DNA of 61,751 nucleotides from IMG/VR virus record IMGVR_UViG_3300009149_010511, positions 1 through 61,751 of that record; one strand, written 5' to 3'. Positions within the stretch are counted from its first letter, which is position 1. The number at the start of each line of letters is the position of its first letter. The position numbers were made by a program, and so were the translations under genes. Under the pieces are notes generated by a model that worked only from the letters and a program-made list of their open reading frames with translations, made no database searches and had not been told where the DNA came from. Below, one piece after another: positions 26,099-43,839 of this stretch. The DNA comes from a virus (taxonomy: Duplodnaviria; Caudoviricetes).

Positions 26099-26645
26099 TT
26101 ATGATAGTGAAGTTCTAATTAGGCTCCTGGAGAACTTTAATTCTTTTGCTAAGCCTGTTACGAAAGGTATTAGATATCGTAAAGAAGAGTTTGAGGTATG
26201 TCCTCATTGCGGAAAAGAGATTGGAGAGAAAGAACTTTCCTATGATGGCAAAGATTGGTTTCATAGACCATGCCATGACAAAGGACCTATCTCTTTAAAT
26301 GATAATATGTGGCAAGGACCTGTAACTACAGCAGACCCTAACGCTAATCTTGAACATGCTAAATTAACAGAAAGTCAAGAAGATGTTGACACAGCAGCAG
26401 CTGACTTTATTCATGCTATAGATATTGCTATTATGTTCTGCAGACAGCAAGATAATTATGGTAGTGCAATTCAGTCACTACTAACTTTAAGACACAAAAT
26501 AGACAATGCTGAAGAGTTTAATGCTAACATAATCGGTTACAAGATTCAAAAGACTTTACTTCGCATTAAAGATTCATTTGGTGAAGGCACAAAAGAATAT
26601 GATATGCTGCAAGCTGAAGCAGCTAATTTAGATAAATATACTTAA
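26091..26645 (+). CDS. Zn-ribbon-containing protein
   Basis: GAGGTG SD before ATG 26091; CPHC...HRPC. Confidence 0.7.
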   Translation: MNNYDSEVLIRLLENFNSFAKPVTKGIRYRKEEFEVCPHCGKEIGEKELSYDGKDWFHRPCHDKGPISLNDNMWQGPVTTADPNANLEHAKLTESQEDVDTAAADFIHAIDIAIMFCRQQDNYGSAIQSLLTLRHKIDNAEEFNANIIGYKIQKTLLRIKDSFGEGTKEYDMLQAEAANLDKYT

Positions 26646-26658
26646 GGAGATAAATAAA

Positions 26659-27060
26659 ATGGCATCGAAACAAGTAGTAGTTGAAGTTACTAAGTTTTTA
26701 CTAGCAAACCCGAAACCATCTGATTCTGAGATGCACGAATGGGCAAAAGGAAAAGGATTAGATATTCATGACGTAGAAGCTGTTTGTTACGAACTAGCAG
26801 CTAAGTTTATTGCTTTTATGAATTCAGGCAATGCTAAGAAAGTTGGTTTTACAAAAGGACAAGCTGATCCAGAACAACTTAAGATGGGAATTAAAGTTGA
26901 AATGGAGCACACTGACGATCCTGTGCTTGCTGAAAAAATCACTTTAGATCATTTGTCAGAAAACAGAGCCAGCAACAAGAAATACTATACTAAGCTTGAT
27001 GGGGTGGAAAAAGAACTTGAAGCTGAAGATAAGAAAATGGACGAAGAAGAAGGAAAATAA
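26659..27060 (+). CDS. DUF5661-like protein
   Basis: QLKMGIKVEMEHTDD...KITLDHLSE...YYTKL signature. Confidence 0.75.
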   Translation: MASKQVVVEVTKFLLANPKPSDSEMHEWAKGKGLDIHDVEAVCYELAAKFIAFMNSGNAKKVGFTKGQADPEQLKMGIKVEMEHTDDPVLAEKITLDHLSENRASNKKYYTKLDGVEKELEAEDKKMDEEEGK

Positions 27061-27461
27061 TGAATAACTATATGACCCCTTCAGAAGAGAAGCGCATTAA
27101 ACAAGAGTTTGTAACATACCTTAGAAAGGGCGACATTGACGCTAATATAAAAAGTGATCTCATTCGCATAAACAAAATCAAAGGTATTGCAACTCTTGTT
27201 TCCTGCGAGGGTCATAACAGTAAGTGTCCTTACATAGTGTTTGCTGTTAGCAAAGCACAAGAAAAGAAACTTAACGAATGGATCTCTTATTTCGTTAAAT
27301 TACATATAGACACAAAGAAACGATACAAAGTTAAAACTATTGAGATACCTTTGTACGACTTTGATGCAAAAAAGAAATCTGCAATCAAACCTGCTATTGC
27401 AGTGTACGGTGATGTTAAGTCACCAGAATTATTTAGAGAAGCTTTACACAAGCTTCGCTAA
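27060..27461 (+). CDS. TYW3-like (tRNA methyltransferase fold) protein, paralog 1
   Basis: DIDANI..L.RIN.IKGIATLVSCEGH..PYIVF resembles the TYW3 D..I....IN....T.SSCSGR motif. Confidence 0.55.
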   Translation: MNNYMTPSEEKRIKQEFVTYLRKGDIDANIKSDLIRINKIKGIATLVSCEGHNSKCPYIVFAVSKAQEKKLNEWISYFVKLHIDTKKRYKVKTIEIPLYDFDAKKKSAIKPAIAVYGDVKSPELFREALHKLR

Positions 27462-27471
27462 GGAGGTCGGA

Positions 27472-27681
27472 ATGACTAAAGGTATATTGACAGAGGTTGT
27501 CAAATTCCTGAGGGAAAATCCTTCGCCTAGTGAAGGCCAAGTACAATCTTTCGCTATTGATAATGATTTAAATTACACGACAGTTGAGGAAAGTATATTT
27601 CGCTTAGCTGGCATGTACATTAAAAGCTTAGATGGAAAATCAGAAGCTGGTCCAGATAATGTGGAGCAGCAGGAGGAATAA
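27472..27681 (+). CDS. Standalone copy of the N-terminal domain of 26659 (start revised)
   Basis: AAGGAGG SD; EVVKFLRENPSPSE...VEESIFRLA vs EVTKFLLANPKPSD...VEAVCYELA. Confidence 0.75.
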   Translation: MTKGILTEVVKFLRENPSPSEGQVQSFAIDNDLNYTTVEESIFRLAGMYIKSLDGKSEAGPDNVEQQEE

Positions 27682-27682
27682 A

Positions 27683-27934
27683 ATGACTTATAGTAGTTTG
27701 GAAAAACTTCCAATCAGTGCGCCATGTTTAAGGATATGGACATTCGTTGATGATGCAGATAGCAAAACTTGTAAGGCTATTTGGAATCACAGCTCAATTT
27801 TAATTATCAGCAAACTGGAAAGTATAACAGAAGGAGAAGATTGGAAAGAATTAGAACAGCGCAGTTTCCTTTATGCCAACTTTCATAGTATTCTGTCTGA
27901 TCAAATGCTTGAAGACATATTAGCAGCTATTTAA
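27683..27934 (+). CDS. Hypothetical protein (start revised from 27632)
   Basis: AGGAGG SD before ATG 27683. Confidence 0.7.
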   Translation: MTYSSLEKLPISAPCLRIWTFVDDADSKTCKAIWNHSSILIISKLESITEGEDWKELEQRSFLYANFHSILSDQMLEDILAAI

Positions 27935-27949
27935 TAGGAGTGTGAGACA

Positions 27950-28069
27950 ATGAGATTCTTTCAAGATCTAGAGTTCTGGATGTTGATTGGTTTAGTCTTT
28001 ACTCCGGTTGCTACAATTGGTTTAAACAAAGATTTCTTAATATTTTACTGGAGGACAAATGATTCGTAA
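27950..28069 (+). CDS. 39-aa hydrophobic peptide (not in ORF track)
   Basis: AGGAG SD; MRFFQDLEFWMLIGLVFTPVATIG. Confidence 0.5.
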   Translation: MRFFQDLEFWMLIGLVFTPVATIGLNKDFLIFYWRTNDS

Positions 28070-28145
28070 TGCATTTTGGATTGTTGTAGGTTTTATGTTG
28101 TACGCACTGTACGTGCTTGTTCCTATCAATGGAGGGAAGCAATGA
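28059..28145 (+). CDS. 28-aa hydrophobic peptide (not in ORF track)
   Basis: GGAGG SD; MIRNAFWIVVGFMLYALYVLVPINGGKQ; ATGA overlap with the next gene. Confidence 0.55.
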   Translation: MIRNAFWIVVGFMLYALYVLVPINGGKQ

Positions 28146-28498
28146 AACGTTATTTAGTTATTTTCTTAATGCTACTTGCCTTTATTTGCGTACAAGCAAA
28201 AGAGTTACAGTTTGATGATCAAGGTAACTTAATTGATCATGATTTAGATAAACTGTATCACATTACGAGTAAGTATAGCTTAGTTATTACTTGCGATGTT
28301 GTTACACCTGGTTATGAAGTTGTATTCAGAGAGGATTGGGGCTGGGAGTTGGCTTTTGGTTTTGGTTATAAACTGCTTTACAGTAACTTTCAGAAACAAT
28401 TCTTTTATAAAGCAGTAGGTATCGGGTTTGTTCTCGGTTATTCGTTAGATAGTCATAGACCAACTTATGGGATAGGATTTACACTCAGGAGGTTTTGA
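28142..28498 (+). CDS. Secreted protein with signal peptide and amphipathic beta-strands (start revised)
   Basis: MKRYLVIFLMLLAFICVQA signal; GWELAFGFGY, GIGFVLGY, YGIGFTLRRF with C-terminal Phe. Confidence 0.65.
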   Translation: MKRYLVIFLMLLAFICVQAKELQFDDQGNLIDHDLDKLYHITSKYSLVITCDVVTPGYEVVFREDWGWELAFGFGYKLLYSNFQKQFFYKAVGIGFVLGYSLDSHRPTYGIGFTLRRF

Positions 28499-28499
28499 G

Positions 28500-28880
28500 A
28501 TGATATTAAAACCATACGTAGGAGAAGATCAAAAAGCTTTCTTAAAGAGAGCTCTTACAATGCTTGTTACGAAACAAAATTACAAACCAGAAGAAGCTAA
28601 AATCATTGTTTCTTATCTATGGAAGCATAAAGAATCTCCTGAGGTAATAGCTGCGCAGAATGCTTTAGCAAAACCTACAATGGAATCAACAAGTACTACC
28701 TTTGTTAATAATATTCCTGTGCAACCACCTACCGGAGGTTTCCCTACGACACAAAATCTAGCTGGTCCTAATAATCAAATGCCGCAAGCTCCTACACAGA
28801 TGACTCCTATGATGACAATCTTTGAAAAGAAGCGACAAGAAGAACATGCTAAATGGTTAGCATCGAGAAATAAGAAATAA
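28500..28880 (+). CDS. Hypothetical protein; N-terminus similar to 5696
   Basis: KPYVGEDQKAFLKR...YKPEEAKIIVSYLWK; Pro/Gln-rich tail. Confidence 0.68.
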   Translation: MILKPYVGEDQKAFLKRALTMLVTKQNYKPEEAKIIVSYLWKHKESPEVIAAQNALAKPTMESTSTTFVNNIPVQPPTGGFPTTQNLAGPNNQMPQAPTQMTPMMTIFEKKRQEEHAKWLASRNKK

Positions 28881-29111
28881 ATGTAGTATTTATTAGTATG
28901 ACGTTAGACAAAAAAGATTTTATTGTTTTTTCGCACACTTTGACATACAGACGTATGTGTTTAGTAGGCTCCCTGTGACAAATACACAGTCATCACTAAT
29001 AAGTAGAAATTACAGAAATGTATTGTGCTACAATCACTTTAACGATACAGAGAAGTTTTTGTTAACAAGAATGTACACATCAGTAATTGGCCATTATTGG
29101 AGAAAGAGATA

Positions 29112-29321
29112 ATGAGGATTAAACCTAAACGCAAACCAATGGATGTTTCTGAATTCTACAATGTAGGAGAGTTGGTTAGAGGTACTAAGAAAGATAGTCC
29201 TTATGCAAGATTTAGGAAAGAGAATCAAACTATGTATTTTAAATGTTGTGTTTATGTTTTATACATATGTCAGACTAGGCGAAGACGCTTTGGTCTTTCT
29301 AAAGCAGGAGTGGTTACGTAG
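29112..29321 (+). CDS. Small ORF, hypervariable array A
   Basis: Overlap-coupled; ends YICQTRRRR. Confidence 0.55.
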   Translation: MRIKPKRKPMDVSEFYNVGELVRGTKKDSPYARFRKENQTMYFKCCVYVLYICQTRRRRFGLSKAGVVT

Positions 29322-29548
29322 TGGGAATCGTTTACGGACAACGAGATGAAGTTTTTCATGAGATGATTCAAGCATTCTGTGATAAAGAGGATGCTCTTGA
29401 CAAATATATGTTTCCAGTTAAGTTTCAGAACATTTTACAAAAATTTAGGATAAAGCGTCCTCACGGTGCAAAGATACACGAACTACTTGGATTCTCTGAT
29501 ATGGTATCTACTTTTATTTTTAAGAGAAAGGGTCTATTGCATCAATAG
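29321..29548 (+). CDS. Small ORF, array A (C-terminal FIFKRK)
   Basis: GGAG SD, GTG start overlapping the previous stop. Confidence 0.6.
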   Translation: MGIVYGQRDEVFHEMIQAFCDKEDALDKYMFPVKFQNILQKFRIKRPHGAKIHELLGFSDMVSTFIFKRKGLLHQ

Positions 29549-29573
29549 AGTTATAATAAGTGTTAATTAATAT

Positions 29574-29783
29574 ATGAGACATATTTCACAAGCAATATTA
29601 GTCGCTTATACTTTAACTCGTCCTTCTGCAATAGTAGGAAGGAATAAGTATTACTCGATAGTAGCACGTAGGCTAGATTTACTGGAAGTACATGCTTTTT
29701 GTAGTAGTAGTGACATACTAATTCCGTTATGTATAACAGAGTCTATCATCAACGTTGAGAAGTGGAAACTAGATGTTAAGTAA
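29574..29783 (+). CDS. Small ORF, array A
   Basis: 69-aa ORF, weak SD. Confidence 0.4.
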   Translation: MRHISQAILVAYTLTRPSAIVGRNKYYSIVARRLDLLEVHAFCSSSDILIPLCITESIINVEKWKLDVK

Positions 29784-30072
29784 CTGTACAACTAAACTTA
29801 AACAACTATTTTCAACACTGGAGAAAGAATCGTATGTGCAAACGCTGCAGCAAGTTTCTTCTATGGAGAAGCTTTATGGTGTTTTAGGTCTTACTGCTAG
29901 CGCTTTAATTAGATTTAATTTATCTATCGATAAATATGTCTTTTGCAAACCATTAAAATTTTATATTGAACCAGACACACTTGTTAGTGGCTCTGTTACA
30001 ACTGCATACTTACATACCTGCTTAGAATCTGAAAATACTATGATTAGGAAATACGTTTATGCCACACACTAA
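29773..30072 (+). CDS. Small ORF, array A (C-terminal KYVYATH)
   Basis: Overlap-coupled. Confidence 0.55.
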   Translation: MLSNCTTKLKQLFSTLEKESYVQTLQQVSSMEKLYGVLGLTASALIRFNLSIDKYVFCKPLKFYIEPDTLVSGSVTTAYLHTCLESENTMIRKYVYATH

Positions 30073-30319
30073 CGTTGAAACACGTTATCAACTTCCGTCC
30101 AAAGTAGCAGTAATTGACTCTTTATTAAGAAGAGGTGTTTTCACAGTTAAGCTATTTTCTATGCGTGCTTGTGCTGAGTATGCAGCTACTGTTAATTTAT
30201 ATTGTAAAGCTCACTATTATTGTTATAATAAACATGATTGCAGTTCTTGTTTTTATCATAGCCGCAGAAACGGGCCTTCTTGCATACATTGTTATTCAGG
30301 AGCGTTAGGATGGAAGTAA
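30059..30319 (+). CDS. Small Cys-rich ORF, array A
   Basis: CSSC...CIHC. Confidence 0.5.
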   Translation: MPHTNVETRYQLPSKVAVIDSLLRRGVFTVKLFSMRACAEYAATVNLYCKAHYYCYNKHDCSSCFYHSRRNGPSCIHCYSGALGWK

Positions 30320-30606
30320 TATATGCTTTTCCTAGCCATGATGAATTCACAATAGACTTACTTACGAATGAAACATTTTTCCATACAAAGGCAAGGTTGA
30401 AATTTGGTACACGTATGAGAAGAGATTTTAAGTATCGTGCAGATTGGTTTAGTCAACAAACATACGGGATGGCTGATACAGGGTTAGGTACTTATTGGAA
30501 TTTTCCAATGTTACTTACGTTACAATCAAGAGGAACGTTGACTACTCTCCCTTTTCCTATAGTAGTAGCACAATTACTATTTGTAAGAAAGGTTAAAAGA
30601 TGCTAG
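30310..30606 (+). CDS. Small ORF, array A (C-terminal LLFVRK; start revised)
   Basis: AGGAG SD before ATG 30310. Confidence 0.6.
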   Translation: MEVIYAFPSHDEFTIDLLTNETFFHTKARLKFGTRMRRDFKYRADWFSQQTYGMADTGLGTYWNFPMLLTLQSRGTLTTLPFPIVVAQLLFVRKVKRC

Positions 30607-30788
30607 CAGTAAGAGCAAGGAAGTCTTTAGCGGCAGAACATTTACATCCTTATATTTTTAAAATATGTAGAGTTACTATTTATGAGGATGAGCGCTGCCT
30701 TCGTCGACTATTTAATCGCTATGACAGCCAGTTAGTTGCTGAGTTACAGTGGTTTAATATAATACTGCGAGGCAGGTATATTCGATGA
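30600..30788 (+). CDS. Small ORF, array A
   Basis: ORF-track call overlapping both neighbours; start codon uncertain. Confidence 0.4.
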   Translation: MLAVRARKSLAAEHLHPYIFKICRVTIYEDERCLRRLFNRYDSQLVAELQWFNIILRGRYIR

Positions 30789-31021
30789 GCAGGAAAAAGA
30801 TTAGAGAATGTGAAGGTTTTACATGGTTACTGTGTGGGCGAAGTAAAAGTAGTATGATATCCTTTTTATATGGGGAGGAAGCAGCGTTACGTAGCGCTGC
30901 TTTTGGCTTATATATGAATGCAAGGCATGATCCCTTTACGCAAGGGTTACCAGAAATACCTACATACATTTTTTGTCGAAGAGGCTGCATGGCTTATAAA
31001 TATGCTGGAGCGAGAAGATGA
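30785..31021 (+). CDS. Small ORF, array A (YIFCRR)
   Basis: ATGA overlaps at both ends. Confidence 0.6.
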   Translation: MSRKKIRECEGFTWLLCGRSKSSMISFLYGEEAALRSAAFGLYMNARHDPFTQGLPEIPTYIFCRRGCMAYKYAGARR

Positions 31022-31260
31022 CGTCTACGGATGGTCACTTAGAGTGGTTAGTTTTTATACCTTGCTTTAAAGGCAACTTTTATCTTAGAAAAGAAAGTTT
31101 TGGCTTTTCAAGTAATTCCAGTCAGTATATGATTAAACCTGAGATAGATTCGCCACCTTTTGTTATAAATATAAATTATCTTCCACAACAGGGTGTGCTT
31201 TTTGAATTATTTATGACTTCAAGAATTTTCGCAAAGAAGTTAGTTACTAATATAGATTAG
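31018..31260 (+). CDS. Small ORF, array A (RIFAKK)
   Basis: GGAG SD, ATGA overlap. Confidence 0.6.
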   Translation: MTSTDGHLEWLVFIPCFKGNFYLRKESFGFSSNSSQYMIKPEIDSPPFVININYLPQQGVLFELFMTSRIFAKKLVTNID

Positions 31261-31271
31261 GAGATAGTAAA

Positions 31272-31766
31272 ATGATTCAACGATGGTTACCGAAAGAAGA
31301 AGAACTGAAAATCAAAAGTAACTTCCTTAAACTTGTAAAAGAGAATAAAATTGATTTTGGTATAGTTAAGTTAATGCAGTCTTTTAATCGTATCCCAGGC
31401 ATAGCCACTATCTGGTCTTGTGAAGGTCATACAGGGAACGAACTTTCAGGCTATACGCCTTACGTTAGTTTTGTATATAGTTTACATAGGAAGCCTAATG
31501 TAGAAAAATTCTGCAGATTAGTAAGAGATGAACTTAGATTCAAGAAGCCTGTTATTCAATTATCTATAAAGCCTAAAGAAGAAATGAGTTACTTTTCTGG
31601 ATATGATAAAGTATTAAAAGGCGAATGCGATAAAGAAGGTAACGTTGACAACTACAAAGAATGTGTTGCTTGTCATGTTCATTGTTACTCGAAAAACAAC
31701 ACCAGATTGTTTTGGTCTGTTGTTAAAAAGCACTTACCAATACTGAATAAGGAAATTGAACTTTAA
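31272..31766 (+). CDS. TYW3-like protein, paralog 2
   Basis: KIDFGIVKLMQSFNRIPGIATIWSCEGH...PYVSF. Confidence 0.6.
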   Translation: MIQRWLPKEEELKIKSNFLKLVKENKIDFGIVKLMQSFNRIPGIATIWSCEGHTGNELSGYTPYVSFVYSLHRKPNVEKFCRLVRDELRFKKPVIQLSIKPKEEMSYFSGYDKVLKGECDKEGNVDNYKECVACHVHCYSKNNTRLFWSVVKKHLPILNKEIEL

Positions 31767-31769
31767 ACT

Positions 31770-32057
31770 ATGAAATTGAATGGGAGCACTAACTATTTTT
31801 TTGGGAAAAAGAATCAGCCTAACACATACTTAGAAAGTAAAGAGTCAGGACAGATATCCTATGTTAGTAATCGGTGCTTTTTTCCAAATAGAGCATGCAC
31901 TGATTTTTGTTCGTCGGTTGCAGTAGATTGTCCAAGCCAACACTATTACTTCACTAGATATTTTCTTCCTCAGCTAATATTTGTAACTAAAAGGTTTTTT
32001 GATAAATATTATCCTCTTGATGACACTGTCGGAGGGAGTAAGGGTGGACATAGATGA
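31770..32057 (+). CDS. Small ORF, array A (LIFVTKR)
   Basis: Coupled ORF. Confidence 0.55.
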   Translation: MKLNGSTNYFFGKKNQPNTYLESKESGQISYVSNRCFFPNRACTDFCSSVAVDCPSQHYYFTRYFLPQLIFVTKRFFDKYYPLDDTVGGSKGGHR

Positions 32058-32320
32058 CTCGTGGCCAAGTAGTTCGTAAAAGCATAATCTCTGACTATTT
32101 GCTTGGTACTGGTAAAAAACTTAACCTTTTTTTAAGGAGGAGTTGGCAGCCGTCAATTGTTCTATGGCATTATCAGCTCGATTATTGGCCTCCTAATGGA
32201 GATAAAGCTTCTGTATACCCATTAGGAGAACCTGTTGCTAATATAGCTCGCACGTCGGCAATTCGGTATTATGTATTTGCTAACAAGAAGATGGTTGACC
32301 CCTCTTTGGAGATTAGATGA
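32054..32320 (+). CDS. Small ORF, array A (YVFANKK)
   Basis: ATGA overlaps; tag identical to that of 41135. Confidence 0.62.
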   Translation: MTRGQVVRKSIISDYLLGTGKKLNLFLRRSWQPSIVLWHYQLDYWPPNGDKASVYPLGEPVANIARTSAIRYYVFANKKMVDPSLEIR

Positions 32321-32547
32321 ATAGAATACCTTCATACATTCGACAGTATATATTTACCGAGGATCATACCTATAATCGTTTTTTTAGTTATCACGATTAT
32401 AATTTGGGTGACCAACATTTATACATAGAAGGATATTATGCATTTGACTATTTCCGTACGAGAGTAACTTATCCTAAAAGGACTGATAATGTAGTTGATT
32501 CCTATGCAATGTACGAATACATTTTCAATGCTAAGAGGTTAGTGTGA
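32317..32547 (+). CDS. Small ORF, array A (YIFNAKR)
   Basis: GGAG SD, ATGA overlap. Confidence 0.62.
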   Translation: MNRIPSYIRQYIFTEDHTYNRFFSYHDYNLGDQHLYIEGYYAFDYFRTRVTYPKRTDNVVDSYAMYEYIFNAKRLV

Positions 32548-32780
32548 TATGCGAGGGAGATTTTTTTGATAGTAGGGATAAAGGAAATGCTTTCTTAGGT
32601 TCCGGTAAATACATATTTCAAGAACCAATGAACCTATCCTGTATAAAATATTATCTTGGGCCAAAGGATACCTTATGTAATATCTGTGCTTATGGTCCGG
32701 TTGGTTTACCTGAAGTGTTTAGAATTGCATGTCTCACATTCGTATTCACAGCTAGACGCTCAGTAAAGTACACTTACTAA
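32544..32780 (+). CDS. Small ORF, array A (FVFTARR)
   Basis: GAGG SD, GTGA overlap. Confidence 0.6.
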   Translation: MICEGDFFDSRDKGNAFLGSGKYIFQEPMNLSCIKYYLGPKDTLCNICAYGPVGLPEVFRIACLTFVFTARRSVKYTY

Positions 32781-32826
32781 TTATTAAAGTATTTAATCAT
32801 CTCATAAGAAAAGGAGTGTGATAATT

Positions 32827-33228
32827 TTGGCATACTTTCTTAATGACCTAGAAGAAAGAGATATTAAGACTAAGTTTAAAGAGAAGGTTAGGAAAGAGGA
32901 GGTAGACTCACATCTTATCGAAATACTTAAAAGCTTTAATCGTATACAAGGTATAGCAGCATCAAAGTTTTACGATGGTAAGAATGGTGCGTATATCTTA
33001 ATCAGATCATCTTACGATAAGTCAAATAAACTTTCAAACTTTTTAGAAGCAGTAGCAAGTAGTTTTAGAACTAAAGACTTACCCTGTGTGTTCAGACACA
33101 GAGCTGGAGAACTATTAATCCAATGTAAGTCACGAGACTACAATGACATGTTCTGGTTTATAGTGATGTCACATGTAAGTAAACTTGCAGAAAAACCTAG
33201 TAAAAAAACAAGAAGGCCTAAGTCATGA
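32827..33228 (+). CDS. TYW3-like protein, paralog 3, lacking SCEGH
   Basis: AAGGAG SD with TTG start; EVDSHLIEILKSFNRIQGIAASKFYDG aligns with paralogs 1 and 2. Confidence 0.55.
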   Translation: MAYFLNDLEERDIKTKFKEKVRKEEVDSHLIEILKSFNRIQGIAASKFYDGKNGAYILIRSSYDKSNKLSNFLEAVASSFRTKDLPCVFRHRAGELLIQCKSRDYNDMFWFIVMSHVSKLAEKPSKKTRRPKS

Positions 33229-33935
33229 AGTTATTTCATTTTATTTCTGAAGCAGATTCAGAGACCGATCAATACTTAAAGAAGTATGGATTGTGTTCTC
33301 CTAGGAAGCTTTACCACGCGAATCTTACACTGTTTATGAAGTATCCTTTTGCTATTTATGGAGAAAGAGCTGCTAAATGGTTAAAGATACCTAAAGCGCA
33401 ACTACTTCCACAACAAGTACTTGACTATTTGGATAGAAGTCCTAAGAGAGCCCCTTATCTTAATTCAAGTTCTCTTTTCTTTTCACTATTACCATTAAGT
33501 GACTACCACGAAGATTTTAAAAATAACTTAAGGGAGGTATTAGAACTGGAAGTTGATTCAGCTATATTTCATGTTAAGCATGAACCTATTTTATTAAATA
33601 GAAAAGACATTCATCCTACTAGTTGGTCAATTGTTGGTAATGAGCGATACTTAGATACAGTTAGAGAAAAAGCAGCTAATAAACCAATAGGATCTTTATT
33701 ATTCAGAGACGTTCCTCATGTAGCTGTTAACTGTTATCATATCCTTTACAAACAATTGACAATCCTAAATGAAAAATTAGCTGATAAAACAGATCTCTCA
33801 AGAAACACAACAATCGAAGAGGATAATGACCATTTGGTAGAAAAGCCTAAAAATCCTCAACAAGCAAAGACGTTAATAGCTTCCGGATCTACCTCAGCAG
33901 AGGCATTAGAAAAGCTATACAATAAATTTAAGTAA
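33225..33935 (+). CDS. Possible ART-fold protein
   Basis: KLFHF...YLKKYGLCSP...SLFFS pattern resembles the H-..-GL.S-..-F.S ART core; inferred. Confidence 0.4.
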   Translation: MKLFHFISEADSETDQYLKKYGLCSPRKLYHANLTLFMKYPFAIYGERAAKWLKIPKAQLLPQQVLDYLDRSPKRAPYLNSSSLFFSLLPLSDYHEDFKNNLREVLELEVDSAIFHVKHEPILLNRKDIHPTSWSIVGNERYLDTVREKAANKPIGSLLFRDVPHVAVNCYHILYKQLTILNEKLADKTDLSRNTTIEEDNDHLVEKPKNPQQAKTLIASGSTSAEALEKLYNKFK

Positions 33936-33955
33936 ACCTTTAAGGAGGATACACA

Positions 33956-35347
33956 ATGACAAGAGAAAGTATTGTACAAAGTGCTCTTGATGCAGCATTT
34001 ACAAAGCATAGGGGTAGTGGGCACAATAGAGACTATTTTGGTGTTAATGACATAACTCCGCATTTTGAATCAAAAGTTGATACAAACATCAACTATGATA
34101 AACAGATTGCTGAAGCTGTTAAAGTCACTAAGCCCGAAGAATCTGAGAAAGGTAAGCCTGCCGCTAAGAACAAAAAAGATGCGCCTAAGTCTGCTGGAAA
34201 GATTATCGAAGAGCAGACAGCTGATAAAAAATTAGCTGAAGGTGTCAAGCAAGCAAAGAATGATAGGAACTATGACCCTAGTGTTAAAGGTGAATTGAAA
34301 AAGACTAAGAATGATGGTGTTGGTGGTTATTCTGGAACACAGGAACACATTGCAGCTAAGAATAGCACAGGTGTAGCAAAAACTAAATATGCTGTCGATA
34401 GTTTCACTAAAGCTCAGAAGACTTCTGCTAAACTAGTTGAAGCTGAGAACTATGAAGCAGACATTAAGAAAAATGCTAATAATTCTGCTCCTGCTAAGAA
34501 AGCAAGTAAGTCTTATGAAGGTGTTCATAGCAACGTAAATGATCCTAGAGCTAAGAGAGCAGTTGCTTCTTTTACTAATGCTGAAAAGTCTGATGCTAAA
34601 CTTCGTGAAGACACATCTTCTGATGTTGACGATTTAACACCGACAACTAATCCAGAAAAAGCTGTAGCTCCTATAAAGGCTCCATTAAAAGAAGACTCTA
34701 TTGAAGTGCAGTCAACTGATGAAGGCGACACTCCTCAGGATGTAATTGCAAACAATGTTGATGATCTTACTCCTACTGCTGGCCCTGGATTAGCTGTAAA
34801 GCCTGAAACTATTGCTGTAACGCAAAAGCAGCTTCCAACCTCCCCCGAAGATGTTCAAGCACAGAATTCACAGCAAGAAGGTGAAGTTGTTACGGTTGCT
34901 GTTGAAGACGACACTGAAGGCGAAGGCGAAATGCATCAGTATAGGCATGGACAAGACGATGGTGATGATTATGATGATGAAGAAGTTGACGAAGATGATT
35001 CTGACAATGACGAAGGCGAATACGAAGAAGACGAGGATAAAGATGCATACGAAGCCGATGAAGACGAAGACGACGATGAAGTAAATGAAGAAAGCACTGC
35101 AGTTGAATGTAACACCAAAAAAGGCAAAGGTCCTAAGATGGTTTACTTGACTGATGACAAACAGCGTGTTGCTTATATGCTTAATGAAAACGTTGTTGGT
35201 ATTCTTGACAAAACTTCAAATAAGCTTTATGTATCTGAATCGCTTGCAGAGTCTGTAAGAGACCAGTTAGAGAATCTTTCAGCCGGACTCGCTGTTCATG
35301 CAGTACCTGCTGGTAAGATGATAAGGAAGAATTATCCTAAAGGTTAA
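33956..35347 (+). CDS. Low-complexity repeat protein with an Asp/Glu tract, possible prohead core/scaffold-type protein
   Basis: AAGGAGG SD; repeats AVDSFTKAQKTSAKLVE / AVASFTNAEKSDAKLRE and VDDLTPT x2; many LxE sites. Confidence 0.6.
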   Translation: MTRESIVQSALDAAFTKHRGSGHNRDYFGVNDITPHFESKVDTNINYDKQIAEAVKVTKPEESEKGKPAAKNKKDAPKSAGKIIEEQTADKKLAEGVKQAKNDRNYDPSVKGELKKTKNDGVGGYSGTQEHIAAKNSTGVAKTKYAVDSFTKAQKTSAKLVEAENYEADIKKNANNSAPAKKASKSYEGVHSNVNDPRAKRAVASFTNAEKSDAKLREDTSSDVDDLTPTTNPEKAVAPIKAPLKEDSIEVQSTDEGDTPQDVIANNVDDLTPTAGPGLAVKPETIAVTQKQLPTSPEDVQAQNSQQEGEVVTVAVEDDTEGEGEMHQYRHGQDDGDDYDDEEVDEDDSDNDEGEYEEDEDKDAYEADEDEDDDEVNEESTAVECNTKKGKGPKMVYLTDDKQRVAYMLNENVVGILDKTSNKLYVSESLAESVRDQLENLSAGLAVHAVPAGKMIRKNYPKG

Positions 35348-35381
35348 TTACGTAGCGATTATATAAGAAGGAGTCTTTACA

Positions 35382-36665
35382 ATGAAATTCGTGTTTATCA
35401 GCCGATACGGTTTAGGTTTTTCAACAGCATACAGAGTACAACAAGAAGGTAATGAAGTTTACTTCTGCATGCTTGAGGATGACGGTATAATGTTGAATAC
35501 ATATAAAGGTATGTTAAAAAATGTAGTTTCAGACTATACCAGTTATATTGATAAAGATACTACGGTAGTCTTTGATAGTTCTACCAATGGTGATAGTGCG
35601 TACTGGTTAAAGAAAGCTGGCTACAAAACCTTTGGCGGTTCAGTATTTGCAGACCGTGTTGAGAGAGACAGACTCTGGGGACTCCTTACAGTTGCAGCTG
35701 ATTGCGGTTTAAACATTCCTGAAACAAGATTGTTTACTGATTTAAATGATGCACTTGTGTTTTTAAGAAAGACTAAGAATCTTAAACGATGGGTCTTTAA
35801 ACCACAAGGTTTCTATCATGAAAGTTATACACCCGCAACAGCTGTGCTATCTAAAGAATATCCAGAAGATGATCTAGAACAGATTTTTGGAATGTTTGCA
35901 ATCGGTGACTTTATACTACAAGAGTTTATTCCAGGTGAAGAAATTGCTTGGGAAGCTTGGTATAGTGAAGGTGAAAGAGTTGGCGACATTAATATGACCT
36001 TTGATGGAAAGAAATTGTTTGACCACGATAAGGGTCCTACAGTTGGCGGAACCGTTAATGTTGACATTGTTAGAGAACCTGAAACCTGTAAGATATATCA
36101 AGAGACTTGTATAGGTATAGAGAAACTTCTTAAGGCTGCTAGATACACAGGACCATTTGATTTAGCATTTATTATTTCAAGCGAAGACGGAAAACCTTAT
36201 TTCTTAGAGTTTACTCCTAGAATGGGTTATCCATCGTCTTATGCTTTATTTCATGGCACACCTGAGGTAGGTAAAGTCTTTTATGAATATGCACACGGTA
36301 AGGCCACAGAGCGGTACTTAGATAGAGATAAGTTTTATGCCACAGCTTTATTATCAGCTGCACCATTTCCTTACAATCCTATGCCTAGAGGAGTTCCTAT
36401 TAGATTTAATCCTGCGCATAGAGATAACCTTTGGTTTCAATTTATGATTGAGGAACAAGGTGTTATTAAAACTGCTGGAGCGTGTGCTGAGATTGCTTAC
36501 GTATGTGATTATGGTAACTCACTATTAAAAGTTAATGAAAACATTTTAAATATTATGAGACAGGTAAAAGTTCCTGTAGTATATCCTTTACAGTATAGAG
36601 AAGACATGGTTGAGGTTACTCTCAAAAGAATTAAAGCAGCTATCGCAACTGGCTACGTTGAATAA
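35382..36665 (+). CDS. PurD (GAR synthetase)-like ATP-grasp ligase
   Basis: FGGS..ADRVERDR, WVFKP, ILQEFIPGEE, KKLFDHDKGPTVGG, YFLEFTPRMGYP. Confidence 0.8.
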   Translation: MKFVFISRYGLGFSTAYRVQQEGNEVYFCMLEDDGIMLNTYKGMLKNVVSDYTSYIDKDTTVVFDSSTNGDSAYWLKKAGYKTFGGSVFADRVERDRLWGLLTVAADCGLNIPETRLFTDLNDALVFLRKTKNLKRWVFKPQGFYHESYTPATAVLSKEYPEDDLEQIFGMFAIGDFILQEFIPGEEIAWEAWYSEGERVGDINMTFDGKKLFDHDKGPTVGGTVNVDIVREPETCKIYQETCIGIEKLLKAARYTGPFDLAFIISSEDGKPYFLEFTPRMGYPSSYALFHGTPEVGKVFYEYAHGKATERYLDRDKFYATALLSAAPFPYNPMPRGVPIRFNPAHRDNLWFQFMIEEQGVIKTAGACAEIAYVCDYGNSLLKVNENILNIMRQVKVPVVYPLQYREDMVEVTLKRIKAAIATGYVE

Positions 36666-36678
36666 GGAGCAATAATAT

Positions 36679-37356
36679 ATGCCTGATATATTTGCCGAGA
36701 TTTCTGATATTCAAGAATATATTGACATATCTGAAAAGGCGCATGAGGATCTTAAAACTACTCGACTGTCTATAGCTTCTCCTTTAGTAATGGCTTTGCG
36801 TAAAGAGCAAGTTGTTCTAAAGCAGGAAGAAGAAAAAGTAACTAAGATTAAGCAGCGCCTAATGCAGTTAATGCGTCAAGGTAATTACGAATTAGTTGCT
36901 AGAATAGTGCGGCAGGTTAAAGGCTCTGAATCTTTTGATGATATTCAAGGTTATGTTGATGATCCTGCAACGTTCTATAAAGATGTGCAACAAGTAGTAA
37001 CGTCTCAAGGATTAGATGTTGGTCAGTATACAGAAAGCTACAAAAAGTTTCTTAGAAGTTTTCTTACACACTTTAGAACATCTATGGAAGATTGGGAACA
37101 ATGGCAAGTTGAGATCTTTATGTTTGAGATAGAGATAATATCAGTGTTCCTTTCTTATAGAACAGTTGATGGCTCTATTACAGAAGATGAAGTTATAACA
37201 CAGCTTATTGAAAACCTTAATCCTTATGATCCAGATATCTCTAAGTCAGATGTTTTCCTGAAAGGTGCATTTATAAAAGATGTAGCTACTTTAGGCATTA
37301 TTGGAATGTTAGCATTAGTAGCTGCGGCTTACATGTCTAAGAAGGGAGCTAAGTAA
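36679..37356 (+). CDS. Hypothetical protein with C-terminal TM anchor
   Basis: ATLGIIGMLALVAAAYMSKK. Confidence 0.72.
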   Translation: MPDIFAEISDIQEYIDISEKAHEDLKTTRLSIASPLVMALRKEQVVLKQEEEKVTKIKQRLMQLMRQGNYELVARIVRQVKGSESFDDIQGYVDDPATFYKDVQQVVTSQGLDVGQYTESYKKFLRSFLTHFRTSMEDWEQWQVEIFMFEIEIISVFLSYRTVDGSITEDEVITQLIENLNPYDPDISKSDVFLKGAFIKDVATLGIIGMLALVAAAYMSKKGAK

Positions 37357-38225
37357 TGATATACGCCATTAAACCTGCAAGTACTTACACAGACTTAGTT
37401 CCTACTAAGGAAAAGATTAGCAGGTTAAGTCAACAGGCATATGAAAGTAAGAAGTTTTATAAAGATTTCTTAGTAACCTTTGCTGAGTACGCACCTAGGT
37501 TAGGTATACAGAGATTCACTGGATTGTTTGAGAAGCTATTTGAGAAAGGAAAGATTGTTGTTTTCTTTACGAAAAGGCCACCAGAAGAATTAACATACGG
37601 TGCTTATTACAATTCAGCCTCTAATATACTGTTTGTTCCTTATACTACATTCTATCAAGGAACATATACAGTTAACTTTGTGAAGGCTTTATCTGTTATA
37701 GTACATGAATTAGCGCATATGGTTTATGCTAATAAACCATTCTTAACTATAAACACATTCAAGGATCTACTGAGAGTGTTTTATAAATATTCTATTACAC
37801 TTTGGATCAAGAGTCAGAACATTGTTGTTAATCAGGAATTAAGAGATGACATAGATGAGATGGCTGAAAGGTTTTTCATTACAGCTGATGCCGGTCTTGC
37901 AACCGTGTTAATGGCTAACCTTGAGGACTTTTATAAAGAAAAAGGTTTCCCTAGAGAAGTTAGAAAGAGCGTTGACGATCTTTTAAACATACTCTTTATT
38001 ATAAGAAGCGGAAAAGCTCTAAAAGAGAATCACAAACGTTTAATATGGATCTTAATTAAAACCCATTCAATGATATCTGGAGTTGATGTTAAGACTTATT
38101 TTAAAGCAGATGCTGGAATTCCTTATCAGGAATTCTATTTCCCCTCTGAAATTATTTCGTTACAGTCACAAGTTAACCAAGCGGTCCGAGTAAAGGTACT
38201 TGGTATCGTAAACCGCATTGTTTAA
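37356..38225 (+). CDS. Putative zincin metallopeptidase
   Basis: GAYY...VIVHELAH (HExxH) with downstream YQE...SE. Confidence 0.6.
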   Translation: MIYAIKPASTYTDLVPTKEKISRLSQQAYESKKFYKDFLVTFAEYAPRLGIQRFTGLFEKLFEKGKIVVFFTKRPPEELTYGAYYNSASNILFVPYTTFYQGTYTVNFVKALSVIVHELAHMVYANKPFLTINTFKDLLRVFYKYSITLWIKSQNIVVNQELRDDIDEMAERFFITADAGLATVLMANLEDFYKEKGFPREVRKSVDDLLNILFIIRSGKALKENHKRLIWILIKTHSMISGVDVKTYFKADAGIPYQEFYFPSEIISLQSQVNQAVRVKVLGIVNRIV

Positions 38226-38242
38226 AAGGAAGGTAATTACTC

Positions 38243-38662
38243 ATGGCTAGAACAACAAATTATTTTGAGACTAGAGCTAGTTCTGGTGATTTCACAAAGA
38301 TCATAGATAAAGAAACTATCTTAACATCAATACGTAATATCATAACCACTCCCAAAAATGCTAGAATCTTTTTACCAGGATACGGAGTAGACCTTTACAA
38401 GTATTTGTTTGAACCTTTAGATGACATAACTCGAACACAACTAACAACAGAATTATACAGAAATATTGCTACTTGGGAAGACCGAGCAATTATTAATGAT
38501 ATAACTGTAGAACAAGATTTAGTCAATATGGCATTACGTGTTAACATTAGCTTTTCTTATTTAGGGGATGATTATGAAGAGCCAATTACGTTGACTCAAG
38601 ATGTGTGGGAAGAAATTAAGACCGATTTTGAAATCCCAATCTCAGAACAACTGGGGCTTTAA
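38243..38662 (+). CDS. Baseplate wedge subunit, T4 gp25/GPW family
   Basis: SIRNIITTPKNARIFLPGYGVDLYKYLFEP...IATWEDR. Confidence 0.92.
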   Translation: MARTTNYFETRASSGDFTKIIDKETILTSIRNIITTPKNARIFLPGYGVDLYKYLFEPLDDITRTQLTTELYRNIATWEDRAIINDITVEQDLVNMALRVNISFSYLGDDYEEPITLTQDVWEEIKTDFEIPISEQLGL

Positions 38663-39717: not shown

Positions 39718-40475
39718 TCTGACTCCTCCGAAGAATATTCCGCATTTATTGTGTTTTCTGATATTCCTCTTTCCTGTAGGATATCAAGCAAGCACTGTCT
39801 AAAAGATTGATTAGCATTTAGAATACAGCCTGTATAATCTGAATTATAGGATACTCCTGGTATTGTATCAGGGTCTACAGTTCTTTTGTCAAACACCATT
39901 CTAATAAGTATTGCATCAGGCAAGCGATTAAGAAGTGAAAGTACCTTAGGCGCTAAGTCAAGTTCATATATTTCATAAGGTGCAGGATATAGGTTTTTAA
40001 ATACATTGCCTCTTTCAGCACATAATATTAAAATAGCTTCAATTAACTCATCAGTGATAGATAGGTGATTAGGATCAGTTTCAAGTAAGCCTAATCCGAT
40101 GATAGCAGGTATTTCTTTTAACCAATCAAGATCTGTCCAATCACCCCACTTGTAATAAATTAGTTTCTTTGCAAGAGTAGACCATGGTTCAAAGTTATCT
40201 GGAACAGGTTCTTTTAGTTTACCAGGTTCGTATGTTAAAGTGTATTGAATTTCTTTAATTGTATGTATAAAAACATCATTCAATCTATAGCGTCTACTTC
40301 TTTCCTTTGTATAATCTGTTTCACTAAACTTATTAGCATAACTCGCTTTTGCAGTTTTACTACTAATTAAGTATTCAATAAGCTCTCCGAAACTCCAAGG
40401 CTCCGCTATTATCGACCTATGTGTTGGTTTATTCGGAGAATATCTTAATTCAGCTACAGGTTCCCAATTAGGCAT
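39714..40475 (-). CDS. Hypothetical protein
   Basis: AGGAG SD, 253 aa. Confidence 0.75.
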   Translation of the reverse strand: MPNWEPVAELRYSPNKPTHRSIIAEPWSFGELIEYLISSKTAKASYANKFSETDYTKERSRRYRLNDVFIHTIKEIQYTLTYEPGKLKEPVPDNFEPWSTLAKKLIYYKWGDWTDLDWLKEIPAIIGLGLLETDPNHLSITDELIEAILILCAERGNVFKNLYPAPYEIYELDLAPKVLSLLNRLPDAILIRMVFDKRTVDPDTIPGVSYNSDYTGCILNANQSFRQCLLDILQERGISENTINAEYSSEESE

Positions 40476-40495
40476 TTTTTTTCTCCTACGTATAT

Positions 40496-40822
40496 TTAAA
40501 TACTAAGCTTTGCTGGTCGCTTCCTTTTGGTGAATATGAATTCTTCCTCATTAGTTACAAGCAATTTTTCAACTGTTATGTTCTGTACGTCATCAACACA
40601 TCCATCAGATGTATAGCAATTAGCAGGTTCCCAAGCTTCTTTTTCGCGAATCAAGCATAATTTTGCTCGAAGGATATGTTCTTCACAACAATGAACTTTA
40701 CAATCCCTATACCTCTTAGAAGATTTATTAAGCAATGTCAACTTATAAGCCGAAGTGTTCTCACAACCATCGATTTGGCACTGATAATAAGTTGCCCCAT
40801 TGTGAATTAATTTGTTCTTCAT
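40496..40822 (-). CDS. Zn-finger small protein, array B (FIFTKRKR)
   Basis: CQIDGC...CCEEH. Confidence 0.68.
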   Translation of the reverse strand: MKNKLIHNGATYYQCQIDGCENTSAYKLTLLNKSSKRYRDCKVHCCEEHILRAKLCLIREKEAWEPANCYTSDGCVDDVQNITVEKLLVTNEEEFIFTKRKRPAKLSI

Positions 40823-40842
40823 TATACTAATGCAACGCCTTA

Positions 40843-41151
40843 TTATATTGATTCAGAATCTGCAATTCCTAAAATTCTTAAAAGGTCAAACTTTCTCGGA
40901 CATATAACATTGCTTAGTTCATCATCGTCATCTATAATATGTAGCTTGATATCGAATACATCTCTTAAAGGTGCATTGGGTGTAAAATCTATTGAGCGCT
41001 GTAATTCTTTTACTAAAAAGTCTTTAACTAGTCTAGGAAAACATTCTTCACATACAGGTTCCAACACAGTCTTGTGTTTCCCCGTTAAATAATATTTAGC
41101 AGGACGTCTCTCACAACAATAACACATTCTCTTTTCATGTAACATAGACAT
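40843..41151 (-). CDS. Zn-finger small protein, array B
   Basis: CYCCE...VCEEC; tail VICPRK. Confidence 0.68.
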   Translation of the reverse strand: MSMLHEKRMCYCCERRPAKYYLTGKHKTVLEPVCEECFPRLVKDFLVKELQRSIDFTPNAPLRDVFDIKLHIIDDDDELSNVICPRKFDLLRILGIADSESI

Positions 41152-41491
41152 TTCCTCTTAGCAAGTTCTGTTTCCTAAATGGAGTTTCAACATGCTTCTT
41201 GTTTGCAAAGACATAGAAAGCTAGAGCATTAATAGGTGCGTGTGTGATATCAAATAATTCTGCAGGTGTATAACAATGCGAAGCCATGCTAAACTCGTAG
41301 CTAAACCCGTAGTTAATAGCTTGGCTCAAACAGTTCTCACATACATTATAATTCATGTTAGGTTGTTTGAGCCAAATACTGAATAAAGCAATTAGAGAAA
41401 ACTCATCACACAAGTCACATATAACATGTTTTCCCGCAGGAATAATTTCTTGTCGTATCCAGTTTTGCATTTCTTGATGTGTTGTATACAT
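41135..41491 (-). CDS. Zn-finger small protein, array B (YVFANKK)
   Basis: CDLC...VCENC. Confidence 0.68.
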   Translation of the reverse strand: MYTTHQEMQNWIRQEIIPAGKHVICDLCDEFSLIALFSIWLKQPNMNYNVCENCLSQAINYGFSYEFSMASHCYTPAELFDITHAPINALAFYVFANKKHVETPFRKQNLLRGNVYVT

Positions 41492-41778
41492 TATTCGTGG
41501 TGCCTCAGTAAACTGTATGCTCTAAAACCAAATACAAACTTTGCCGTCATTGCTTCAAGACCTAAAGGACTTTTCAAGATATGTATTTTGACTCCATGCA
41601 AAGGTTCTTTGTTGTCGCCTTTAGGAATGTCGTCACGACCTCTTAACGTATAGTAAATAGCTTTAGCACATCCCCTTTTTCCACAACAATAAAAAGAAGC
41701 TGTCCCCTGTTCCTTACTTATGAAGGTGTCTATTAAGATACTAGCTTCTTTACAACAAATATGACAACGATTTATCAT
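41491..41778 (-). CDS. Zn-finger small protein, array B (FVFGFR)
   Basis: CHICCKEAS...YCCGKRGC. Confidence 0.68.
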   Translation of the reverse strand: MINRCHICCKEASILIDTFISKEQGTASFYCCGKRGCAKAIYYTLRGRDDIPKGDNKEPLHGVKIHILKSPLGLEAMTAKFVFGFRAYSLLRHHE

Positions 41779-41831
41779 TCGTGGTACCTCAGTGAATCAA
41801 CTAGCTTGGAACCACATCTAAACTTTGTCAT
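41775..41831 (-). pseudogene. 18-aa mini-ORF MTKFRCGSKLVDSLRYHE, degenerate duplicate of the 3' end of 41491-41778
   Basis: ATGA overlaps at both ends; DNA similarity TTCGTGGT(G/A)CCTCAGT at about 41495 and 41778. Confidence 0.6.
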
Positions 41832-42133
41832 TTTTGTATCCCTACTCCAAGCATCTCCCTCATAGAGCGTTTCCTAGGAAACATTTGGAAAGAAAAAAGC
41901 CCATCATTAAACGACGAAATGTTAATTACTTTTAATGTATCTTCGATAGAATTAAATCCTCCCGTAGCTAACGCCTCTCCTAAGACTATCAAGAATTGTT
42001 TCTGCAAACATTTGTCACAACAACAATAACGTCGGTTCGCCATATTTAACATTCCTGTTTTTCGCTCAACAAAATGTTGAGCTGCTGCATCTTTGCATAA
42101 GTGACATTTAATATCTTTACGCGTGTTTAGCAT
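41828..42133 (-). CDS. Zn-finger small protein, array B (MFPRKR)
   Basis: CHLCK...YCCCDKC. Confidence 0.68.
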   Translation of the reverse strand: MLNTRKDIKCHLCKDAAAQHFVERKTGMLNMANRRYCCCDKCLQKQFLIVLGEALATGGFNSIEDTLKVINISSFNDGLFSFQMFPRKRSMREMLGVGIQK

Positions 42134-42142
42134 TCACGTTCC

Positions 42143-42421
42143 TCATTCAAGACTATAGCATTTTACAAGACTAAAAGGCTTTTTGCCAAAAATAAACTTA
42201 GATAGTCTTAGTTCTTTGTTAAATATTTTTATTCCAATAGTTTCTCTTTCTTTTTTAGTGAGGGCAACTATATCAGCGATAGCAACTATATCAGCGAGGA
42301 TGGCTCTATAGCACTTAGGAGATGTACAGCAGTGATAAATGAAGCTACCATCTACTGAAATACCAAAAGATGCTTCTTTCCTGCAGATTGAACAATCACT
42401 TGCCGAGCCATGAAAACTCAT
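42143..42421 (-). CDS. Zn-finger small protein, array B (FIFGKK)
   Basis: CSICRKEAS...HCCTSPKC; paralog of 41491. Confidence 0.68.
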   Translation of the reverse strand: MSFHGSASDCSICRKEASFGISVDGSFIYHCCTSPKCYRAILADIVAIADIVALTKKERETIGIKIFNKELRLSKFIFGKKPFSLVKCYSLE

Positions 42422-43444: not shown

Positions 43445-43445
43445 A

Positions 43446-43820: not shown

Positions 43821-43839
43821 CTTCCTTAAAACCTCTTAT

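Follow-up and report, generated by a model that had tools for sequence, protein, structure and literature searches.

Two opposite-strand arrays of small genes with a shared C-terminal motif, one of them hypervariable, in part of the genome of an uncultivated large myophage

Large phages possess hyperplastic regions, variable regions of the T4 type and early host-takeover modules. Arrays of fast-evolving small genes are where they keep much of their takeover and counter-defence repertoire, and most of these genes are uninterpretable. In phage T4, the capsid targeting sequence is located at the N-terminus and is removed by the prohead protease. In the internal proteins, which are highly diverse, no other part than this sequence is conserved (PMC3012670). 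Here we analyze a stretch of 61,751 nucleotides (nt), hereafter the window, which is the whole IMG/VR virus record IMGVR_UViG_3300009149_010511. With a CheckV completeness of ~22%, the window is a fragment of a large phage, namely, an uncultivated large myophage. Its plus strand carries array A (29097–32780), a gap-free chain of 13 open reading frames (ORFs) of 62–108 amino acids (aa), broken by one ordinary gene only (31272–31766). Its minus strand carries array B (40496–42421), six tandem paralogs of 92–118 aa. Members of both arrays share a short motif close to the C-terminus. Arrays of fast-evolving small genes are known in large phages; those described here share a terminal motif, a putative handle. 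We assign a probability of about 0.5 to the reading that both arrays encode lineage-specific, fast-diversifying small accessory proteins with a conserved C-terminal handle for a common partner.

The strict form of the motif, [FY][IV]F-x(1-2)-[KR][KR], is found in five of the 13 array A ORFs (29321, 30785, 32054, 32317 and 32544), always in the last 25 aa. The control proposed in a first-pass annotation of this locus, a comparison with shuffled sequences, places this frequency far above expectation: shuffling each ORF yields a mean of 0.038 ORFs with a match, and none of 20,000 shuffles reaches five. Because the pattern had been defined after looking at array A, it was retested outside of it. 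Among the other 158 ORFs of at least 60 aa there are three strict matches, all of them in array B and 7–19 aa from the C-terminus, whereas shuffles of the same 158 ORFs give a mean of 0.069 matches in the last 30 aa (0/1000 reach three). Considered separately, three of the six array B proteins carry the strict motif, versus a shuffle mean of 0.0027 (0/20,000 reach three). Six-frame translation of the whole window returns nine strict matches, eight in arrays A and B and one out of frame in the tail sheath gene; the Markov-1 expectation is 2.24 (standard deviation 1.43, maximum 6 in 100 simulations). Eight of the nine matches follow the reading frame of an ORF of 75–118 aa, all with the same orientation and close to the ORF's end. 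The motif is non-random, specific to arrays A and B and conserved at the protein level. The original observation is real and stronger than the first-pass annotation knew, because it extends to a second array, is exclusive to the two arrays in six-frame translation and concerns a region that is hypervariable in the population.

Profile searches give a graded picture. When profiles of the C-terminal 30 aa were searched with one member left out at a time, five of nine array A members ranked at position 4 or better of 274, and the top outside match in six of the nine runs is the array B protein 41135. When array A and B termini are combined into one profile, the left-out ORF 29321 comes first among 268 (E 2.4e-6), with the other members at E 0.001–21. 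An unbiased count of fixed-spacing patterns in a reduced alphabet does not single out any five-position pattern in array A alone (the best is present in 3/13 ORFs, a count reached by 274 of 300 shuffles); applied to both arrays, it places aromatic-aliphatic-aromatic-small-x-basic on top, with 7/19 proteins and 0/300 shuffles. Ten tags had been listed previously in array A. The five strict ones hold, as does LIFVTKR of 31770 (leave-one-out rank 1, E 0.074), and the remaining four are weak or invalid. LLFVRK (30280), RIFAKK (31018) and YICQTRRRR (29097) do not fit the regular expression and were placed at rank 69, at rank 91 and not found, respectively, of 274. KYVYATH (29773) lacks the basic pair and is not a match.

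Gene layout and coding statistics lead us to regard the array A ORFs as genuine small genes that are probably coupled in translation. All ORFs of the first-pass annotation are present, its positions denoting start codons and not motif sites; the ATGs at 29112 and 30310 lie inside ORFs that open at TTG 29097 and TTG 30280, respectively. The gene call supplied with the record for the second of these is 98 aa long, matching the start at 30310, and both array A ORFs that were looked up (32054 and 30280) are among the genes predicted by this caller. The overlapping junctions agree with the suggested translational coupling. Five ORFs begin with four-base ATGA/GTGA overlaps (30785, 31018, 32054, 32317 and 32544) and one with a one-base overlap (29321), the remaining junctions being overlaps of 7–14 nt or gaps of 3–37 nt; ordinary genes of the window also use ATGA/GTGA overlaps. 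ORFs of at least 60 aa cover 98.9% of 29097–32780 on the plus strand and 6.4% on the minus strand, versus a mean of 4.8% (maximum 26%) in 500 Markov-1 simulations. About 5.5% of random single-base changes in array A would create a stop codon and nevertheless 99% of its 3.7 kb is open, which shows that the frames are maintained. A codon log-odds score was trained on 47 long genes, with stop codons removed from the background so that openness earns nothing. Its mean is 0.029 in array A and 0.022 in array B (Mann–Whitney P 0.83), compared to 0.185 in 24 held-out ordinary small genes and −0.146 in 44 spurious wrong-frame ORFs (P 1.9e-5 versus array A). The two arrays are also alike in composition: codon position 1 is poor in G and rich in T, and F, Y, C, R and H are overrepresented. 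The isoelectric point exceeds 9 in nine of 13 array A proteins, compared to 38% of other genes. Recoded stops, or a single long frameshifted gene, were considered and rejected: the frame shifts at nearly every junction and starts sit on stops, as in the five ATGA/GTGA overlaps. A transmembrane anchor was rejected on hydropathy and on inspection of the residues ahead of the basic pair. A sortase or exosortase signal, in which a signature motif is followed by a hydrophobic helix of ~20 aa and a basic tail, was also rejected, with no hydrophobic run of at least 15 aa in the 34 aa before the basic pair and a grand average of hydropathy between −0.72 and 0.33 for the array A proteins.

All members of array A are encoded on the plus strand. 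The first ORF (29097..29321; 74 aa from ATG 29112) has its loose tag, YICQTRRRR, 12 aa before the stop and is not recovered by leave-one-out. The next one (29321..29548; 75 aa) carries the strict tag FIFKRK 5 aa before the stop, and its last ~30 aa resemble the array B module, as seen with the combined profile. Three ORFs without a tag follow: 29574..29783 (69 aa), 29773..30072 (99 aa), in which KYVYATH falls outside the motif, and 30059..30319 (86 aa), which is Cys-rich with two CxxC pairs. ORF 30280..30606 (108 aa, or 98 aa from ATG 30310) has the loose tag LLFVRK 4 aa before the stop and is not recovered by leave-one-out, and 30600..30788 (62 aa) has no tag. ORF 30785..31021 (78 aa) overlaps both of its neighbors by ATGA and bears the strict tag YIFCRR 12 aa before the stop; in 31018..31260 (80 aa) the loose tag RIFAKK is found 6 aa before the stop. 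The embedded gene (31272..31766) belongs to another family; it is untagged, has a strong Shine–Dalgarno (SD) site and shows a weak TYW3-like N-terminus and a match to phrog_7413. Downstream of it, 31770..32057 (95 aa) has the loose tag LIFVTKR 20 aa before the stop. The last three ORFs all have strict tags: YVFANKK, 9 aa before the stop, in 32054..32320 (88 aa), a heptapeptide also present in the array B protein 41135–41491; YIFNAKR, 2 aa before the stop, in 32317..32547 (76 aa; leave-one-out rank 1, E 0.001), where AAGAGG doubles as the SD site of 32544; and FVFTARR, 6 aa before the stop, in 32544..32780 (78 aa; rank 1, E 0.012, in a full-length leave-one-out search). The N-termini of the 13 ORFs have nothing in common. 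Within ORF 30059–30319, an alternative plus-strand frame (30135–30308) encodes 57 aa resembling a transmembrane peptide.

Array B is a genuine protein family. Four cysteines are invariant in all six proteins and form a CxxC...CCxxxC zinc ribbon, and the C-terminal consensus is roughly ...I-x-I-F...S-x-x-x-F-[GP]-x-[RK]-K-x-S-L-L-R. All six zinc-ribbon paralogs are encoded on the minus strand. Strict tags are found in 40496..40822 (108 aa, FIFTKRK), 41135..41491 (118 aa, YVFANKK) and 42143..42421 (92 aa, FIFGKK); variant tags are found in 40843..41151 (102 aa, VICPRKFDLLR), 41491..41778 (95 aa, FVFGFRAYSLLR) and 41828..42133 (101 aa, QMFPRKRSM). An AlphaFold model was made for 42143–42421, in which the motif appears to start as the second strand of a hairpin (E64–68, E73–77), a suggestive placement. 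Foldseek found no match to this model in the PDB at E ≤0.001 (best E 1.3). For the same protein, the best score in the ESM Atlas was 0.87, to unnamed clusters, and is a lead only that was not used. The family may have a seventh member located apart from the others, 51543–51944, which has ILFGRRR near its end and scores E 0.018 against the array B profile.

Within the population, array A is hypervariable. The stretch 26500–44000 was found at ~99% identity in runs of three studies, from subsurface, aquatic and marine sediment samples. These matches are mostly short contigs of low depth, Logan contigs drop rare variants and one of the four runs, X1, may be the source sample of the window itself. 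A contig from X1 spans 26500–41937 and differs at 11 substitutions, nine of them in array A, which makes up 24% of the span (binomial P 8.5e-5). The substitution density is ~14 times that of the flanks (nine in 3.7 kb versus two in 11.8 kb). Over all runs, every one of the 10 single-nucleotide polymorphisms (SNPs) located in an array A ORF is nonsynonymous in the called frame, as against three of 10 outside, where seven are synonymous (Fisher P 0.003). They comprise 29766 K>E in the ORF starting at 29574, 29789 T>I and 29797 L>F in 29773, three changes each in 30059 and 30785 and 31782 G>W in 31770; the single SNP in the embedded gene is synonymous. None of the array A SNPs makes a stop and none falls in a motif. 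The bodies of the proteins show a lack of purifying selection; positive selection is not proven. The changes affect A, C and G alike and are not adenine-specific. A diversity-generating retroelement was not supported: no template/variable repeat pair stood out from short chance matches in 27000–43500; reverse transcriptase was not searched for. In the 57-aa alternative frame mentioned above, SNP 30143 is synonymous (nonsynonymous in the called frame), and SNP 30174 is nonsynonymous in both frames. Indels were also observed, namely, a C inserted at 28928, within the gap that precedes array A (X2 and X4), an in-frame GAG insertion at 33818 within gene 33225–33935 (X2) and the loss of one base at 40475, on the edge of the start codon of 39714–40475 (X1).

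The phage represents an orphan lineage, with no close relative in the collections searched. Megablast of 28900–33300 and tblastn of three array A ORFs (29773, 30059 and 31770) against phages gave no match. Tblastn with 35382–36665 retrieved one match (MW202796, 25% identity), the neighborhood of which is devoid of such arrays. In viral contigs, no related loci were found through 31272–31766 or 35382–36665; the alignment A2 query led to one distant high-GC phage locus, L003, without arrays, and the gp25-like gene 38243–38662 to eight loci at 30–33% identity, all from unrelated small phages. No related loci were found in metagenome contigs, nor in genome contigs when the tail sheath was used as a query. 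The array B profile matched only the window's own proteins, five of them listed among 5.8e9 proteins and all six among 1.84e9 representatives. Queries 32054 and 30280 returned only themselves from the 5.8e9 proteins, a search in which the 'longer' and 'shorter' length classes were left out, so that fused forms are possible. Nothing in Pfam or PHROGs scored above threshold for proteins of either array.

Outside of the motif, the array A proteins are highly divergent. The first-pass annotation held that they do not align except near the C-terminus, and an all-against-all BLASTP bears this out, with no pair below E 8e-4; the sole pair at that value is Cys-rich. Even so, we lean towards array A being a set of diverged tandem paralogs, or at least proteins with a homologous C-terminal module, rather than unrelated payloads. 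This preference is based on uniform length and motif position, hydropathy, the recovery of 29321 at E 2.4e-6 and the codon and amino acid biases shared by the arrays. Strict members are all 75–88 aa long, and in all five the motif begins 67–72 codons past the previous stop. Over the 50 residues upstream of the motif, hydropathy profiles correlate weakly, at 0.074, versus 0 ± 0.023 in controls, only four of 2000 of which reach the observed value. The sole strongly constrained element of the proteins would be the C-terminal aromatic-aliphatic-aromatic stretch with its following cluster of two to four K/R residues, 2–20 residues from the end. From these data we infer that the proteins are translated, descend from a common ancestor and bind one common partner, using the aromatic strand and K/R clamp as a handle. 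Given the chemistry of the motif, the partner would probably be anionic; nucleic acid, a membrane and an acidic protein are our guesses. The bodies would change under relaxed or diversifying selection, as expected of host-takeover and counter-defence genes, and carry changing specificities.

Several observations weigh against this reading. With the motif cut off, left-out members rank 11, 199, 19, 96, 156, 1 and 56 of 276, and the ranks are no better, indeed worse, with nine members; since similarity in the motif-free part of array A cannot be demonstrated, it is not proven that the bodies share an ancestor. In array A the array B profile detects 29321 alone, and weakly so (E 0.047–0.13), and the tagged array A ORFs lack the four-Cys zinc ribbon. 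When the hydropathy test was applied to array B, a known family containing indels, 1232 of 2000 controls reached the observed value. The test is therefore a blunt tool and the meaning of its result for array A is uncertain. The AlphaFold model of 42143–42421 is of low confidence (predicted local distance difference test, pLDDT, 61.4; predicted template modelling score, pTM, 0.51; pLDDT <50 from residue 78 on), and the array A fold is uninformative (pLDDT 49.3, pTM 0.23). SD sites are weak or absent at many array A starts, in contrast to the strong AGGAG at ordinary genes. The array A SNPs are concentrated in three tight clusters, with a single site apart from them, and may therefore represent ~4 independent events instead of 10. 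Ten nonsynonymous changes out of 10 are only marginally unlikely under neutrality (P 0.047), and the SNP density is compatible with neutral drift, so that selection on the bodies is not shown. Finally, because the libraries searched hold no relatives, conservation of the motif over evolutionary time is not measurable.

Neutral drift of coupled ORFs is the main deflationary rival. The ORFs would be old duplicates, kept open only so that ribosomes traverse the operon and polarity on the downstream structural genes is avoided, with the motif as a fading relic. Drift explains the SNPs, both their all-nonsynonymous pattern and their density, as well as the weak SD sites; a codon score between those of real genes and spurious ORFs and the lack of homologues in the searches are in line with it too. 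A relic, however, would not stay sharp, and the strict motif persists in 5/13 ORFs while the rest has diverged beyond recognition. This sharpness, together with the variation of the motif at synonymous positions, points to purifying selection on the motif residues. The array has also remained open despite the proportion of changes that create stops, and array B, with the same codon signature, is a clearly constrained protein family. On balance, we consider drift improbable. The synonymous variation bears equally on the view that a T-rich and then purine-rich RNA or DNA element, such as an SD, standby or processing site or a promoter, merely translates as the motif. F is encoded by TTT or TTC, V by GTA or GTC and R/K by AAG, AGA, AGG, CGA or CGC, and the ten-residue match YVFANKK-x-V-[DE] between 32054 and 41135 differs at synonymous third positions. 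Thus, the signal is at the protein level and is not an SD site or a DNA repeat. The first-pass annotation had cautioned that K/R codons may double as the SD site of the next gene. This is right for 32317, where AAGAGG is located 5 nt upstream of GTG 32544, and arguably for 30280, where AGAAAGG precedes ATG 30600, but for these two only; as an explanation of the motif it fails. In the other seven of nine tagged array A ORFs the K/R codons are ~27–60 nt from the next start, out of SD range, and a separate SD-like site is found nearer. A DNA repeat or mobile element was rejected as well, no DNA repeat families having been found, and Rfam families have no match in the window. Taking into account also the in-frame, single-orientation placement of eight of the nine six-frame matches near ORF ends, a nucleotide signal is already largely refuted and we give it next to no credence.

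Another alternative, close to the original interpretation of tagged effectors, is a portable address: unrelated payloads would be brought to one machine by a short linear motif that they have in common. The machine could be the prohead, for co-injection, or a phage or host hub, adaptor or protease. No similarity is demonstrable outside of the motif, and the tag is found on two types of bodies, with the zinc ribbon in array B and without it in array A. Beyond the FIF strand, the array B model drops below pLDDT 50, as it would in an exposed tail. The proteins are small, mostly basic and hypervariable, and array A is located among plus-strand structural genes (tail sheath at 8157, baseplate at 10652 and 38243). 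However, the uniform length and motif position of the strict members and their hydropathy correlation suggest a single domain, and the same low-confidence model places the first half of the motif in the second strand of a hairpin and not in a free tail. Genes for a partner, a protease or a portal were not found in the 22% fragment, and the motif is C-terminal, unlike the T4 sequence. The tagged-effector interpretation has kept its factual core, a real protein-level motif that recurs in an opposite-strand array, whereas diverged paralogs fit the data at least as well. It is a live possibility, not the best supported one, and we rate it as unlikely. We retain fast-diversifying accessory proteins with a conserved handle as the preferred reading.

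The surroundings of the arrays are those of a myophage with a GC content of 34–42% in the window. Family searches identified a tail sheath gene (8157–9872), a baseplate wedge-like gene (10652–12994) and a gp25-like baseplate gene (38243–38662), all on the plus strand. The minus strand encodes a sigma-70-like factor (52609–53358; regions 2 and 4 both above Pfam cut-offs), a CCA-adding tRNA nucleotidyltransferase (58934–60268; phrog_2244, E 4e-67), a 5'-3' exonuclease, a dUTPase, an SLT transglycosylase and a thioredoxin. Despite the CCA-adding enzyme gene, ARAGORN found no tRNA genes in the window. A promoter and terminator scan gave counts at or below shuffle expectation with the sigma-70 consensus, which may not be the phage's own; since the phage encodes a sigma-70-like factor, it may rely on promoters of its own that are invisible to such a scan.

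Several neighbors of the arrays deserve mention. A trio of paralogs is positioned before, inside and after array A on the plus strand (27060–27461, 31272–31766 and 32818–33228). Its members share 26–31% identity (BLASTP E 4e-10 to 7e-8) and the motif SFNRIxGIA...SCEGH; matches to Pfam TYW3 are sub-threshold (E 0.004–0.012; for the 31272-type gene E 0.004, 17 bits against a cut-off of 27), and phrog_7413 is matched at E 1.2e-10. A distant homologue of the trio adjoins an SNF2-like gene in the high-GC phage contig L003 (7917–8285). Just upstream of array A, a plus-strand ORF of 140 aa (28076–28498) has an internal Met that opens a signal-peptide-like stretch, MKRYLVIFLMLLAFICVQA; its product, for which there is no family match, may be a secreted protein or a lipoprotein. 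Near each array there is a gene for a very acidic, D/E-rich protein (33956–35347 on the plus strand and 43840–44178 on the minus strand), the former without a family match. GAT-rich low-complexity DNA at ~34950–35100 and ~43850–43900 draws contigs of other organisms, with depth spikes of at least 100 in all four runs.

Among the closest known systems are the hyperplastic regions of large phages, which array A resembles in its tandem, tightly packed and coupled small ORFs without homologues, located between conserved modules and evolving fast. To our knowledge, such arrays have not generally been reported with one terminal motif across two opposite-strand arrays, and a light literature search yielded no relevant report of arrays sharing a C-terminal motif of this kind. 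Precursors of ribosomally synthesized and post-translationally modified peptides were also compared: no Pfam or PHROG enzyme family is found in 27000–33935, and ORFs of 62–108 aa are long for precursors. C-terminal anchoring by basic and hydrophobic residues is known from the tail of MinD, which targets it to the membrane, and basic C-terminal recognition from the tail of MuA, a tag for ClpX. As a working analogy, with no sequence relationship claimed, the array proteins would resemble these in using an aromatic/aliphatic and K/R stretch to anchor different proteins to an anionic surface or a common machine. Those tails consist of amphipathic helices or of peptides at the extreme C-terminus; in the arrays, by contrast, a low-confidence prediction makes the aromatic triad a beta-strand and the motif is found 2–20 aa from the end.

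A handle common to ~11–15 unalignable proteins provides an experimental grip on otherwise uninterpretable genes. Should it turn out to direct packaging or delivery, it could also serve to load cargo. Should it be no more than the one strand still conserved in a diverging family, the locus is a clean natural case of extreme divergence, with a single constrained element and population hypervariability. The T-even internal proteins (IPI, IPII, IPIII and their variants) are a further comparison. They are likewise small, highly diverse and have only a short terminal sequence in common. They are also encoded in variable regions of large myophages, and array A shares with them population hypervariability and a mostly basic character. 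By analogy, one doubtful scenario is that the motif is a tag by which a changing set of small basic proteins is loaded onto a single phage machine. The most appealing candidate is the capsid, from which they would be co-injected with the DNA as a first-strike counter-defence and takeover set. This ~22% fragment showed neither a prohead protease gene nor a scaffold gene. The array A motif differs from the T4 sequence in composition and in being located 2–20 aa from the C-terminus, not at the N-terminus; a capsid tag of this kind, equally doubtful, would be a C-terminal, independently evolved counterpart of the T4 capsid targeting sequence.

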